From Vicugna vicugna (taxonomy: Eukaryota): DNA of 64,000 nucleotides. Shown here one piece after another: positions 2,255 through 56,399 of the stretch. Location: positions 3,051,370-3,115,369 of the forward strand of contig MU057744.1 of assembly GCA_013265495.1 (NCBI GenBank), given 5' to 3'. Numbering within the stretch: the first letter of the stretch is position 1; each line of letters starts with the position of its first letter. The notes below the pieces were generated by a model. It saw nothing but the letters and a program-made list of their open reading frames with translations, did not search any database and had not been told where the DNA came from. A program made the position numbers and the translations under genes.

Positions 2255-2409
2255 AAAAGAGTTTTATGTTTTATTTATCTTTGTATTATTACTTTATTTT
2301 GGTGGGGGAGTAATTGGGTTTATTTATTTTTGGAGGCGGTACTGGGAATTGAACTCGGGACTTCGTATACACTAAGCATGTGCTCTACCACTTGCGCTAT
2401 ACCCTCCCC
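2255..2409 (-). mobile_element. Camelid-type tRNA-derived SINE
   Basis: Reverse strand reads GGGGAGGGTATAGCGCAAGTGGTAGAGCACATGCTTAG...GAGTTCAATTCCCAGTACC (A and B boxes), then AAATAAATAAACCCAATTACTCCCCC and an A-rich tail. Confidence 0.9.
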
Positions 2410-8365: not shown

Positions 8366-9165
8366 TTGAGATCAGAACCCCTCTTCTCTTCACCAAAATG
8401 CAATTCATATCTAAATGGGAAACCACTTAAGTGTCTTTTCATTTATTTGGGTTTAATTAACTTCTCTGAAGAGAAATCTTTGGGATTTTATTCTGTGTTT
8501 ACTCAAACTTTATCAAAAGCACAAAGCAGATGTTCTATAAAACTTACTTCAACTTTCTTTGGTATCTTTCAAGCACCAATACTTCCTCTTCATCTATGGT
8601 TTCCTTGTGTTATGTAGCAGATTCTTTTTTATATAATCTTCGTGCTTTGTTTTGTTCTACTTCGTAACCCGTTTAGCCATCCTTAGGTGCAACCTGACCC
8701 ACTGGTGCCCTTATATAGGCTAGAAGGAGTATCTTTTAAACCTGCTTGGGGTTTCTCTGTTTGCTCGTATAATCTTCTTTTTCAGGTCTTTATCAGGAAA
8801 GCTGGTCACCTAAGTTACCTGTCATTCTGGTGGCAGGCACATATGGGGAGGGAATGAGACCTGGAGATTTCCTTCATGAGAATTTCATCCTGCCATATTG
8901 AAAAATGACACTTACCCTGGTGGCCAACTGTCTTTGTCCATCCTCACTGGCCCAGCCTGTGCCAAGCAGAGTGTTGCTAAATCCTTCTGGTGCTTCCTCC
9001 AGGGGAAAGTCCCACTGCCCCCAGAATAAGCCCTGCTGTACTCATTACATTGTCCCTGGGTCTGTGTAGGGAAGTGGATTCCCACCGCCTGCTTCCAGTC
9101 TGCCCTAAAGCACCCCCTCTCTCTAATATCATCCCCTCCAAATTGAGAACTAACAGTTCTCCAGA

Positions 9166-9405
9166 CAAGAAATCAGCCAATGATTTCTGTAAAGGGCCAC
9201 ATAATAAATATATTTTAGACTTTGCAAGTTATACTGTTTCTTTCGCAACCTCTCAACTCTACTCTTGTAGCAGGACAGCAGCCAGAAATGAATGGCTGTG
9301 GCTGTATTCCAATAAAACTTTATAGACTCTGAAATTTGAACCTCAAATAATTTACAATTATATGATTCTTTTGACTTTTTCCAGCGATTTAAAATTGTGA
9401 AAACC
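9166..9405 (+). mobile_element. MER58B (hAT-Charlie MITE), left part
   Basis: TTCTGTAAAGGGCCACATAATAAATATATTTTAGACTTTGC…CTCAACTCTAC…GGCTGTATTCCAATAAAACTTTAT…CTGAAATTTGAA…TTTAAAATTGTGAAAACC follows the MER58B consensus as recalled. Confidence 0.85.
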
Positions 9406-9521
9406 GAGGAGGGAGAGTGTCACTCAGTGGTAGAGCCCATGCTTAGCATGCATGAGGTCCTGGGTTCAACCCTCAGTCCCTCCATTACAGAAATAAATAA
9501 ATAAACCCAATTGCTTCCACC
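9406..9521 (+). mobile_element. Camelid-type tRNA-derived SINE (5' part of a chimeric insertion)
   Basis: CACTCAGTGGTAGAGCCCATGCTTAGCATGCATGAGGTCCTGGGTTCAACCCTCAG…AAATAAATAAATAAACCCAATTGCTTCCACC; homologous to the copy at 2255-2409. Confidence 0.9.
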
Positions 9522-9802
9522 TGAAACAGTCAAGTCCAGTGACTCCAGCACCCCCTGCTGAAGATGGAGTTTCAAAGTCTCAGAATCTACAAGTGAGAAA
9601 AAGGAAAATCCACCAAGTGCGGAACTGGGATGCTGACAGGACATTCCAAAGACTACTTGTCTGAAAACCAGGGGAGAAGCTCACTGAGAAGGGAGTAATT
9701 GTGCAGATTCGAGGAAACTCTCCTAGTGTCATGTTCGTATTACTGAAGGAGACAGCATTAAAGTTGATGAAATGTCAAAAACAAACAAACAGACAGACAA
9801 AC
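9522..9802 (+). pseudogene. Unidentified retroposed or transduced segment with a poly(A) signal and decayed A-tail
   Basis: ~255 bp not recognisable as a repeat, ATTAAA at 9757-9762, A-rich tail from 9777 (AAAAACAAACAAACAGACAGACAAAC); lies inside the same TSD pair as the SINE. Confidence 0.6.
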
Positions 9803-9871
9803 AGAAGTGTAAGAGCCATTCTTAGCTTGCAGGCTGCCCAAGCAGAGGGCCACAGTTTGCCAGCCCCTCTG
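9803..9871 (+). mobile_element. MER58B, right part
   Basis: TGTAAGAGCCATTCTTAGCTTGCAGGCTG…GGGCCACAGTTTGCCAGCCCCT resumes the consensus where the left part stopped and ends in the terminal inverted repeat. Confidence 0.8.
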
Positions 9872-10399
9872 CCCCACCCAGGCAGGGTGTGAGGCCCTCT
9901 CTTCCCTGGGGCACACCAGGGTCTTATCAGGGTCTCCCATCTGGCTGGAGCAGCATTTCCTGATTCCTTGTGATAGAGCCGTTTCTACCTGGAGTCTTTG
10001 CATTTCAATTTTCTCCTCTGTTGGTGGGTCCTTCCCCCTGGGGATCTGGCCTTAGGAAAGGTGGTTAGGTTTTGTTAGCCAGTATGTATCTGATCTAGTA
10101 GTGAAGATGGATTTTATTCATCTCTGCTCTGTCTGGAAAATGTGTTATTTTACCTTTTGCTCTTCTCCAGGATCCTCTTCAATTGAACTAAGTTAAACTG
10201 ACTACTGACCAGTTTGTAATCTTTGATTGAATATATTTGAACTTCATTTACATGATTTTTAGATTATTCTTTCTACTTTTTCCTCTTGAGATTGTGTTGC
10301 AAGCAGGAAGATAACTTTGGCCAGTAAATGAAAGGATTGACAAAACAAAGTGTGAATTGAGACAAAAAATATATGCCCAATCCTACTTTTGTTTTGGCT

Positions 10400-24089: not shown

Positions 24090-24222
24090 GGGGCGGTAGG
24101 GTATGGCTCAGTGGCAGTGTGTTATTAGCATGCACGAGGTTCTGGGTTCAATCCCCAGGACTTCTATTAAAATAAAGAAAGGAAATTTTTAAAAATCCAA
24201 CCAAAAAATTTTAAAAAGAAAT
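24090..24222 (+). mobile_element. Camelid-type tRNA-derived SINE
   Basis: GGGTATGGCTCAGTGGCAG…TTAGCATGCACGAGGTTCTGGGTTCAATCCCCAGG, A-rich tail, degenerate TSD AAAGTTTCTGTGTTA / AAAGTCTCTCTTA. Confidence 0.9.
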
Positions 24223-39493: not shown

Positions 39494-39584
39494 GGTGGGG
39501 GTGTAGCTCAGTGGTAGAGCTGCTGTTTAGGATGTACAAGGTCCTGGGTTCGATCCCCAGTACCTCCTTTAATTAATTAATTAA
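39494..39584 (+). mobile_element. Camelid-type tRNA-derived SINE, short, with a (TTAA)n tail
   Basis: GGGGGTGTAGCTCAGTGGTAGAGC…GGTCCTGGGTTCGATCCCCAGTACCTCC TTTAATTAATTAATTAA. Confidence 0.88.
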
Positions 39585-52600: not shown

Positions 52601-55600
52601 TTTATAACAAGCACTGTCTGTATCTGAACAGGAATATCTTTAGTGTGAACATAGCAGTCATACTGTTGTACCTGTGGTTTCCTAACACCTGTGAGTTTAT
52701 TGTTATGGGATCAACTTGACGTTGGTGGAAAGGCTCGCATAAGTTCCAAGTCTGCTTAAGACTGTCTTCAGTGTTTCAAACTTTGATGGTATTTTGAGAA
52801 AGTGTAATTTCAGATACATTTGTGGCCATTTCTCAGCTTGATTAAAGTCTCATTATTTCATTTTTTTGAAGGCTAGAATTCCAGTTGCCTGCAGAAAACT
52901 GCCAGAGTGCACGATTAAAGTAGTTCAAGGAAGGAGGCAGTATTATTTTAATAACTGGAAGAGACTATGTTCTCAGAAGTATTTCCCATAGCTTAAGGAA
53001 TTGACATAGGCAACTTGACCTCTACTGTCTTAATCATTTATCTGTACTTTATTTGTATAATGCACAAAATCATTGGATTTATTTAAGTATTTGAAACTCA
53101 TGTATTTCCAAGATGTTTGTTATGTTAAAGCATTTCTCTAAGCCCAGTTCTTCAGGGTTGTGAGCATTGTAGGTAGTCACTGAAACTGTGTTTTATGTTT
53201 ATTTATTTGGGTGGAAGAGACTAGAATTTTCCTGAGACAAACAAATCTAAACCTACTTTAACCATTTTGCCGTAAGCTCCAGTGCTATTGGGAATTGGAT
53301 TATTCACCAGCGGAAAAATAGGTTCTGATATAAACATCGTTGTCAAATTGTAGTCCTGTTTTTCTATTTTATACTTGACTTCCTCAATTTTAGAGTTGAT
53401 TTTGAGAATACTGCAAGTTTTTGCAGACAGTCCCATAACTGGACACTGTTACACCACAGTCTTTCTTACTGTATGTTGTTACATGGTTACACTTAAGAGA
53501 CAGAACGTTGCCTGAAGCATACAGTGTCTTTGTACCAAGAATCAGTGTTAGTTCCTGCTTCTTAGTTTTAATTAGGGGGGGAAAGTCCACTTTCAAGTAC
53601 ATTTCACCTGAATGGGTTTGTAAAATTCAGAATTTAAAAAATTTGCTGTCCAGTGCTTCTTCCCTCTCTCGACTTTCACTAGACATTTGACATCTCCCGA
53701 AGTAAATCAATGCTGAGAAAACCCCTCTAGGAATGCCTTCTTTAAAGCTAGTAATTTTCCATCTCCTACTCTTTACAAGAAAAGCGTTTGCAAATCCTGG
53801 GACGTTTCACTTGTTCAGCAGTTGACACTTTAGGAACCTCCAACTCTGTGTAGGTGTTGAAGTAAATTTGAAACATGGAGGTGGAAGAAAAGCCATATGT
53901 CCCTAAAAGTTTTATTTTATTTTTTAAATGAAAGATGCTTCAAGTATGAAAGGAGAGACAGCAAGCAGCTCGTCCACAGGAAGAGTCCAGAGAGAGAGAG
54001 CCAGAGTAGAGCTTCTACTGTCTACAAAATTCTTAGCAAGAATAACATCATTGTTTTACATTGGAGACTATAGCAAATTTTACAAAACAGCCACATAACT
54101 ATGCAGTTACTTTTTGATGGATAGAAGAAATTATCAATGCTAATTGATCACCTGATGATATTTTATTTTAATTCATAAAGAAATTGATTAATTTTAAACC
54201 AGAGAGTGGACTCCAGCTCTAATCATCACATTTTGAGGAGAGATTTTTCTTGCAGCCGCATGGCTGCATCGTGGGCTCCCAGAGTGTGCAGCACTTTCTG
54301 AGGAAGCAGACGTACTCTCTGTGGATGATTTTGAAATAGGTTAATATTTAATGGACAGGAGTGCACAAAAATTTTTTTTCTTTGAGTATCTGCACATAAA
54401 TACAAATACTTTATATATTTGTTAGTGCTACACAAGTGACCCAACAATTTTTAATAAGATTCAGGGAACAGAAGCAAAAGAAATTTCATTTTTCTATGTG
54501 TTTCTATAGGGAGTGAAGGACAATCCAAGAACAAGAAACATTTCACAAAGAAAAACAATAGTTTTATTTTCCAAATAGCTCAGAGTTTAAGCAGAAGAAT
54601 CAAAATCAAAAGTGAAATAAATACATCTAAGTAAGTAACACTAAATTAAGCTAAAAGCTTTATGGGTGAAAATTCAATTATAATTCACTTCAACTTATGT
54701 TTTGGGACTATTCCTCTTTTTATATCATCCTACCATTTATTATCATCAAAACACATTTTTGTACAGTCCTACGAGCAGGGCCCTGGGGCTACAAGAAGGT
54801 ATGTGGTATTTTCTCTATCCTTCAGTGACTCCAGTCTGTTTTAACTTTCTGTGTTATGGAAAAATAATTGCACCTTTATTTTTGTTTCACTACCTTTATC
54901 GAGAGGGGAGTTGATTTCTGCAGGCTCACGTGGTACACAGTAGCAGTTACCAGAGGCTAACCGGTAGCAGCTACGGAGGAATCTTGTCCGGAGTGTGACA
55001 TGAACTCACAGTAATGACAGTAGTGCTACAAGTTTCTGCTCTCGTGGGCTTTGTCGTTGTGGTTCTTTTTCATGAAATCACTGCAAGTGAGCTTTCTCAT
55101 CATGAATTATTTCCAGTGCTACCCTTTGATTTCGTTAATCTCATGTTAACATTAGGCCTCACGACTGCTGGGTGGACCTGTGTTTATCCCGTTTATTCCC
55201 CCGGCCGTCCCGTGACCTCACTTCGAGCATACAGCCCTCATGCATTAGGATTTTCTTACCTCTGCTGTGGTTTTTGTTTTGTTACGTTTGGTTTTTTCCT
55301 ATGGGGAGCATTTCCTCTCTTCTTTAAAAGCCTGCGCTTTTGTGGACAGGACTGTGCCACAGTGTGTCTTGTGAGGGCACTAAGAAGAGAAAGGGCGGTT
55401 TGCTAGAGACTCCCCTCCTAAAACTGCAGCTCTGACAGTTGGGGCCTCTGACAACAGAGGTCCCTTGTGTGGTTCAGTGACAGTGCCTGGGGGCCGGCAG
55501 CTCTTTGGAGGACACTCTAGCAGAAGCTCGGCTTAGGCGTCCAGCCTTCCCGGTGCACTTCATTCCCATGCTTCGCCTCAGCAAGAGCCAGGGGCTCTGA

Positions 55601-56399
55601 AGGCGGAATCCCCAGTGACCGTCAGACAGGGGACTGGTGGGGTGGGCGAGGGCCCTCCTGCTCTGGGGGACGGGGCGGGAGGCCTCAGTCATCCTTGAGA
55701 CTGTGATTGTTGTGTTGTTGTTGTTTAGATTTCCCTGCCAGCAGAACAGAGGCTCCCAGTTGGATCTTTGTTGATTTAGAGAAAATCAGGGGCATGTTGT
55801 TTCCTGGCTCCCTTGAGCCTTGAGTGTGCCCTGAGAGACTCCCAGGTCCATTCTTTCATATTCTTGTGAAACTGGCGTAACGAAAAGGACTGGAGCTCAG
55901 GAGGCTCTGGTTCTGAGCCTGGGCTGCCACTTTGACTTCCTGTAAGGTGGGCCCAAATGCCTTCGTAACCGTCTTTGGATTGAAGTGATGTTCAGTCGAG
56001 TCTGCTACACCCATGCCCCCAGATTTAAAGGTGGGGTCACTGGGTTAAAAGCTCCTGATTAAGGATCAGACACGGCTGTGATGCAAGGACAGAGTCCCAG
56101 AGAACTCAGAGCAGGGTCTGTGCCCTAGACTCGTTTTGGGAAAGCACAGGAACAAAGGTTTCCATTTTACACTTTAATCGGCTCTCAGATTTTGAGCGGA
56201 TACAAACTGCTCTGAACTAATTTTTCCCTTTACACAACAAAGTGCTCCTAGCACGGGATAAACACAGGTCCACCCAGCAGTCGTGAGTCTCTCTTTTTTT
56301 CGAATTTGAGACTGTGGGCTATGAAGTCAGAACCCATGAGATTGTGGGCTAATCACGTCCTCCCCCAAGACCCAGTGCCGACCCAAAGAACACGGGGCC

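Follow-up and report, generated by a model that had tools for sequence, protein, structure and literature searches.

A single-copy SINE-TMEM202 retro-insertion in Vicugna vicugna, probably a chimeric retrogene

An old interspersed repeat in the genome of Vicugna vicugna is split by an insert in which a tRNA-derived SINE is followed, in the same orientation, by a stretch of coding-like sequence and a decayed A-tail. The locus raises the question of where the second part of this insert came from, and of whether both parts were brought in by one integration event or by two. We addressed it in a window of 64,000 nt (contig MU057744.1 of assembly GCA_013265495.1, positions 3,051,370 to 3,115,369), to which all positions below refer (Table 1). 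The retro-insertion of SINE and TMEM202 sequence is real, old and present in a single copy; it behaves as a chimeric retrogene would, and it probably is one.

Table 1. Features of the insert and of its target, in window coordinates
Feature	Position	Strand	Basis
Left arm of old interspersed MER58-type repeat (insertion target)	9147..9405	+	Genome matches and 29-copy consensus
Left copy of 15-bp target-site duplication, starting at TTT/AAAA	9391..9405	+	Consensus comparison, pattern count
Full-length tRNA-derived simple SINE, including first A's of tail	9406..9526	+	ARAGORN, 39-copy consensus, SINE-end comparison
Linker, first ~5 nt SINE-like, last ~7 nt unexplained	9522..9533	+	SINE-end, tail and TMEM202 comparisons
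5'-truncated coding copy of last TMEM202 exon, ~33 C-terminal codons	9534..9630	+	11/97 columns differ from source
TMEM202 3' UTR copy, ending at the inferred cleavage site	9631..9776	+	24/146 columns differ from source
Decayed poly(A) tail, 18/26 A, absent at source	9777..9802	+	Sequence and source comparison
Right copy of target-site duplication	9803..9817	+	Consensus comparison, pattern count
Right arm of MER58-type repeat	9818..9883	+	Local alignment to consensus positions 271-343, score 41

The target of the insertion can be reconstructed from its relatives. When the left flank was searched against the animal's own genome, all 40 scored candidates matched (the best 40 of 332), those other than the focal copy at 68-76% identity, and 29 of these matches, with the focal copy left out, provided a consensus. 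The window follows this consensus over 9147-9404 and takes it up again at 9804, in agreement with the first-pass annotation of this DNA, which had described the insert as splitting a repeat. We take that repeat to be MER58B, a MER58-type fossil of a DNA transposon. Around the insert a 15-mer is doubled, as AAAATTGTGAAAACC on the left and AGAAGTGTAAGAGCC on the right, and the same 15-mer is present once, directly 5' of ATTCTT-like sequence, in the 12 of 29 repeat copies that span the break (local score of at least 60). Mismatches between the two affect 5 of the 15 positions, but TGT (positions 6-8) and CC (positions 14-15) are shared. Of 127,970 positions in the window, only 7 carry a 15-mer of this TGT/CC pattern. 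Chance therefore does not explain the second copy, and the degenerate duplication of about 15 bp that had been read from the letters is real. It begins at TTT/AAAA (the slash marking the break), a TT/AAAA site of the endonuclease type.

The 5' part of the insert is a SINE, as first described, with a tRNA-Ala-like head recognized by ARAGORN at 9412-9484, and it spans the family consensus from the G-rich start into the first A's of the tail. The consensus was derived from 48 local hits, less the focal copy and 8 duplicates (39 copies), and is biased by the fact that 28 of its source loci were top matches to the focal copy; 14 of the 107 columns differ from it (13%, 95% interval 7-21%). The tRNA-like part is 12% diverged, at the median of 20 bystander rows that include the focal copy and duplicates (12.7%), and the median divergence of the 28 top matches is 8%. 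In the promoter, the A box (9420-9430) has two changes with respect to the family consensus and the B box core (9463-9472) is intact. The initial claim that the SINE ends at 9521 without an A-tail stands in one respect, in that a long tail is missing, but not in the other, for 9508-9526 matches the ends of other copies at up to 16/19 and the element thus reaches the first A's. At 9524-9533 the sequence has 6 A's in 10, within the range of 4 to 10 seen in 29 other copies. A search of the SINE 3' end for a long tail with an adjoining target-site copy gave none, and over the adjoining 90 nt the best candidate for a duplication of the SINE's own had a score of 10, no better than the chance-like hits obtained at other copies.

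The family to which this SINE belongs is abundant in the genome (at least 46 matches, with 2250 first-look candidates). SINEBase names vic-1 as a simple SINE of camels (PMC3531059), and the focal family is probably vic-1; the two are alike in consisting of a tRNA head plus tail and in being very abundant in a camelid genome. The portion of PMC8605555 that deals with camelid SINEs describes nearly all of them as MIRs and is of no help for this family. Rfam gave no match at 9391-9817, its sole match in the window being another copy of the SINE at 39497. That copy, reported by ARAGORN and Rfam as a tRNA-Pro (39497-39568), is 76% identical to the focal element and is no real tRNA gene, and further copies of the family lie at 2306-2392 (minus strand) and 24125-24180. 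Elsewhere in the genome, five tandem 158-bp units, each with a whole SINE, were seen at L031:1501-2240 (G000:C12065:5564153-5564889); they are identical in their printed parts and stem either from recent amplification in tandem or from an error of assembly. At L008:1400-1600 two SINEs stand head to tail, the second directly after the AAAT repeats of the first, as a nested or dimeric insertion, and three loci (L004, L007 and L009) share both the SINE and its flanks as parts of a segmental duplication.

Behind the SINE, the stretch 9522-9776 had been described as unique. This description does not hold, because 9534-9776 derives from TMEM202: it is an 86% copy of the last exon of this gene (35 of 243 columns differ), comprising C-terminal codons, 3' UTR and ATTAAA signal, and it lies wholly inside that exon. 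A genome search with 9522-9776 returned two candidates, and both matched: the locus itself and G000:C10346:15045868-15046114 on the minus strand (84% over query positions 13-255). The latter is a last exon preceded by an acceptor rich in pyrimidines. Over the matched 72%, its peptide shows 100% identity to TMEM202 of Vicugna pacos, and it is 94% identical to that of the dromedary. Among its protein matches 17 of 18 are named TMEM202 in the first place, the remaining one being so named by a second source, and a search with the alpaca TMEM202 protein found four coding exons at the source locus. On the opposite strand, a hexosaminidase-like gene begins at a distance of about 10 kb; in human, HEXA likewise adjoins TMEM202. 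Pfam matched 1 of 10 exon peptides, from the HEXA-like neighbour, and gave no match on the TMEM202 exon pieces. Upstream of the copied stretch, the source locus has a TMEM202 coding exon and no adjoining SINE.

The source region also holds features of its own. A diverged tandem paralogue of TMEM202 lies just downstream (L034:4365-7759; G000:C10346 about 15039500-15042900, minus strand), with four exon-like frames arranged as in TMEM202, 39% identity to residues 7-117, 23 of 51 identical residues in the next exon and a longer, acidic C-terminus. The genomic first coding exon of TMEM202 (L032:8692-8952, minus strand) agrees with the dromedary N-terminus, and the two alpaca protein records begin with a different short peptide, which is found some 9 kb upstream in a frame that falls in the first intron region of the neighbouring gene. 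The discrepancy reflects either an alternative first exon or a difference in annotation.

The comparison with the source accounts for what had been noticed in the copied segment. The earlier description gave it coding-like readings in two frames, and both peptides are the TMEM202 C-terminus, split over the two frames by a 4-nt deletion after 9580; the source stop codon reads GGA at 9628-9630. Likewise, the ATTAAA reported 14 nt ahead of a decayed A-tail is found at 9757-9762. Homology to the source ends at 9776, exactly where the A-tail of the window begins, and the source runs on into a U/GU-rich stretch that resembles a downstream element. The poly(A) is thus located at the polyadenylation site of the parent and is not encoded in parental DNA. 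That homology stops 14 nt after ATTAAA, at the start of the tail, identifies the template as a polyadenylated TMEM202 mRNA. Tmem202 is among 30 testis-enriched mouse genes with fertile knockouts in the account of PMC6735960, and this enrichment makes it plausible that the mRNA was available in the germ line. The copy has Pro at a position where the dromedary also has Pro and the alpaca has Gln, which, together with a divergence of 14%, would date the insertion to before the split between camels and the llama/alpaca lineage.

The first-pass annotation had offered three origins for such an insert: a template switch between SINE RNA and mRNA, a SINE read-through transcript and, if many copies existed, a composite SINE subfamily. 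The source locus agrees with the first, as the segment is the 3' end of an mRNA that no SINE adjoins at its place of origin. The other two would derive the insert from a master locus in which a SINE already preceded the TMEM202 sequence, by 3' transduction or as a member of a composite family, and we consider this very unlikely. It gains from the lack of a TTTT terminator before 10009, owing to which a Pol III transcript could cover the insert; the longest T run in 9406-9802 is 3, in agreement with the earlier remark that a TTTT run is missing. The longest T run in the source stretch is 2, however, and the lack of TTTT is simply inherited from there. In addition, the tail begins where the mRNA itself is polyadenylated, which indicates a Pol II transcript and speaks against SINE read-through, and at the source a coding exon occupies the place directly upstream in which transduction would require the element. 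Besides the search with 9522-9776, a source-side search of the genome (601 nt, the more sensitive direction) returned two candidates, again source and self. With the junction as query (40 matches among the best 40 of 1293 candidates), only the locus itself spans the junction, and a TMEM202 protein search gave 5 matches among 26 scored, namely the four exons of the gene and the neighbouring paralogue. These counts are lower bounds, since genome searches score the best candidates and copies could be missed. Still, one copy was found of what in a SINE family would be at least 100 interspersed ones, the SINEBase threshold (PMC3531059). A more speculative version would have the insert as the aborted birth of a composite SINE, in which the SINE RNA was joined to the mRNA fragment, possibly at the RNA level as in the case of U6, and which was endowed with a Pol III promoter and about 600 nt without TTTT, transcribed, and with diverged camelid daughters that the searches missed. 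We give this very little credence; if it were true, tRNA-SINE/mRNA chimeras would form a class that has yet to be catalogued and that would merit counting across the genome.

It remains to ask whether SINE and TMEM202 copy arrived together. The proposal of one integration event is likely on the whole, but the single outer duplication does not establish it, for a retrocopy nested in the A-tail of the SINE also leaves one such duplication. According to this second reading, a SINE was inserted first, generating the outer 15-bp duplication, and a 5'-truncated TMEM202 processed pseudogene was later inserted at a pyrimidine/purine step at the start of its short, decaying A-tail, duplicating 10-12 nt that would now form the linker on the left and the end of the tail on the right. 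A-tails are targets of L1, and L008 shows that members of this SINE family can receive a second insertion at their 3' end. We view nesting as a strong rival, though a less likely one than a single event. The sequence on which the choice turns is the linker, and the relative ages of the parts also bear on it.

Between the SINE body and the mRNA part lie 7-12 nt, and the fact that the parts are not directly joined weighs against a single event. So does the correspondence of 9524-9533 to the 3' tail at 8 of 10 ungapped positions (shuffled-linker P 0.02-0.03), as an inner duplication would produce, together with a gapped linker-tail score that is reached by 0/27 other tails. On the other hand, 12 of 29 unrelated SINE tail-starts also reach 8/10 against the focal tail, and the gapped score is reached by 5/27 other tail-starts and by 65/600 shuffles. 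A linker of 7-12 nt is also shorter than the length peak of 14-16 bp given for duplications of full-length L1 in Kojima 2010 (PMC2912911), which, with the absence of a separate duplication beside the SINE, supports a single event; according to the same source, short duplications are rare for truncated mRNA retrocopies. We also considered TMEM202 homology extending into the SINE end, which had a score of 22, a shuffle P of 0.004 and no equal among 32 other SINE ends when the test was unconditioned. With the SINE end held fixed, P rose to 0.05-0.17 and the same 5/6 hit was obtained from 15% of all 6-mers; read as TMEM202, moreover, 9508-9526 matches at only 9/19, against 16/19 for SINE ends, and the extension was rejected. 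The origin of the linker is hence uncertain among the stub of a decayed SINE tail, an inner target-site copy, untemplated bases and TMEM202 sequence ahead of a 12-nt deletion, with none of these options significant under proper nulls.

The ages of the parts are similarly balanced. The SINE is 13% from its consensus and the outer duplication differs at 5/15 positions, while the retrocopy is 16% from its source pairwise, or about 8% per lineage. Estimated separately, the SINE with the outer duplication appears older (0.157 per lineage) than the retrocopy (0.096), as nesting would have it, and a single age is put at 0.116. The difference, which taken at face value argues against one event, is not significant: the likelihood-ratio P for one age versus two is 0.13 with a neutral UTR, taken here as 25/147, one terminal column above the aligned 24/146, and 0.23-0.68 with UTR constraint. 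Either such constraint or errors in the consensus would mimic the pattern. The SINE and the retrocopy are not separable by age (P 0.13 at best), and the fact that one age fits SINE, outer duplication and UTR supports a single event. Linker and age estimates taken together do not choose between one event and nesting (P 0.05-0.2); nesting needs, in addition, that another rare event should have struck the very point where the tail begins.

The reverse order can be envisaged as well, with the retrocopy inserted first and the SINE entering later at the TT/AAAA of the left duplication, its tail and its own duplication having since been mostly deleted. The site conforms to the endonuclease consensus and would be regenerated, and by eye the first linker bases resemble the end of the left duplication. 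This order would nonetheless leave a tail and a third 15-bp copy ahead of the mRNA part, where there are only 12 nt and no such copy was found, and the SINE shows no sign of being younger than the retrocopy. We therefore regard it as highly improbable.

Our preferred reading, with a probability of roughly 0.55, is one L1-mediated event that produced a SINE/mRNA chimeric retrogene by template switching or RNA ligation. A full-length SINE at the 5' end, a truncated mRNA at the 3' end, a common orientation, one flanking repeat and poly(A) all support a chimeric retrogene. In this scenario, a single L1-driven integration would have taken place in an ancestral camelid germ line, starting with a nick at the TT/AAAA of the MER58-type fossil that is presumably the work of the L1 endonuclease. 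Reverse transcription would have been primed on the poly(A) of TMEM202 mRNA, in agreement with a tail that the source lacks, and would have proceeded some 243 nt into the last exon before moving on to SINE RNA and copying it from the beginning of the A-tail through to the 5' end. The template could have been exchanged by the reverse transcriptase or could already have been a ligated RNA, two routes that sequence cannot distinguish. Repair would then have left the observed 15-bp duplication around both parts. The L1 proteins may have been supplied in trans, in the male germ line, and the insert would later have decayed, as its frameshift, its damaged A box and the lack of daughter copies among the search results suggest. 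To judge from its sequence the insert is dead, with no sign of function.

The surroundings of the insert hint at a transcribed setting. A CpG-rich promoter-like region lies at 480-1800, about 7.6 kb upstream, with a strong plus-strand splice donor after 1751, and T exceeds A on the plus strand in 28 of 32 windows; on these grounds the insert may sit in sense orientation in an intron. Two crude exon scans and the open reading frame lists of the 40-kb flank identified no protein-coding host, and the CpG-rich region possibly precedes a lengthy first intron or belongs to a non-coding gene. Use of the ATTAAA as an intronic poly(A) site seems unlikely from the sequence, because the native downstream element was lost. 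The window also contains a perfect 35-bp inverted repeat (55158-55192 and 56253-56287), its arms about 1.1 kb apart.

Taken by itself, the insert has little importance, being a minor relic of a reverse-transcription accident whose kind is known. Nonetheless, it pins down the site at which camelid TMEM202 was ancestrally polyadenylated, and it is usable for the Camelidae as a shared-insertion marker. Should the single-event origin be true, the pair of tRNA-SINE and mRNA would join the partner pairs of L1-made chimeras. The literature on chimeric and nested retro-insertions that we surveyed covers U6/mRNA, Alu/L1, B2-U6-L1 and mRNA/L1 combinations, and none of the papers surveyed is devoted to tRNA-SINE/mRNA; this absence from the survey is no proof of novelty.

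The insert can be set against three known systems. It has the features of an L1-mediated processed pseudogene, namely a target-site duplication, a TT/AAAA site and poly(A) at the site of the parent. With the 5'-truncated pseudogenes made by L1 in trans that are treated in PMC2912911 it shares an mRNA 3' end with its own poly(A) signal, a duplication and an endonuclease site; it differs from them in that the copy falls within one exon, where intron loss cannot show, and in that it carries or abuts a SINE. The layout laid down for chimeric retrogenes in Gogvadze 2007 (PMC2104539) consists of a full-length 5' part, a 5'-truncated 3' part with poly(A), the same orientation, a direct join and one repeat. 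Here, the 5' part is a full-length copy of SINE RNA, the 3' part is the last 243 nt of TMEM202 mRNA with poly(A), and both are in sense on the plus strand; in place of the direct join there is the linker, and inside the outer 15-bp repeat there is its 8/10 resemblance to the tail. U6/mRNA chimeras (PMC4476161, PMC2104539, PMC6789731), as portrayed in these papers, are likewise made of a full-length Pol III RNA followed in the same orientation by a 5'-truncated mRNA, with poly(A), one duplication at an L1 endonuclease site and a single copy. The present insert departs from them in its tRNA-derived SINE as 5' partner, in its 7-12 nt linker and in being known from one genome. PMC4476161 holds U6/pseudogene chimeras to be established and treats one U6atac/Alu case without a duplication as two events. 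It also contains the suggestion that template switching may be largely limited to U6 and U6atac as 5' partners, which speaks against a single event here. In the account of Moldovan et al. (PMC6789731), U6 is ligated at the RNA level to L1 and non-L1 RNAs; the relevant text of PMC7488140 only restates the phenomenon. Finally, Law and Burns 2026 (PMC13174262) report 452 Alu/L1 chimeras with a full-length sense Alu, judged by paired presence across species. As in those chimeras, whose older members have eroded duplications, a full-length sense SINE stands here 5' of a truncated retrotranscript within one duplication, with the differences that the 3' partner is a cellular mRNA instead of L1 and that the insert has been read in one species.
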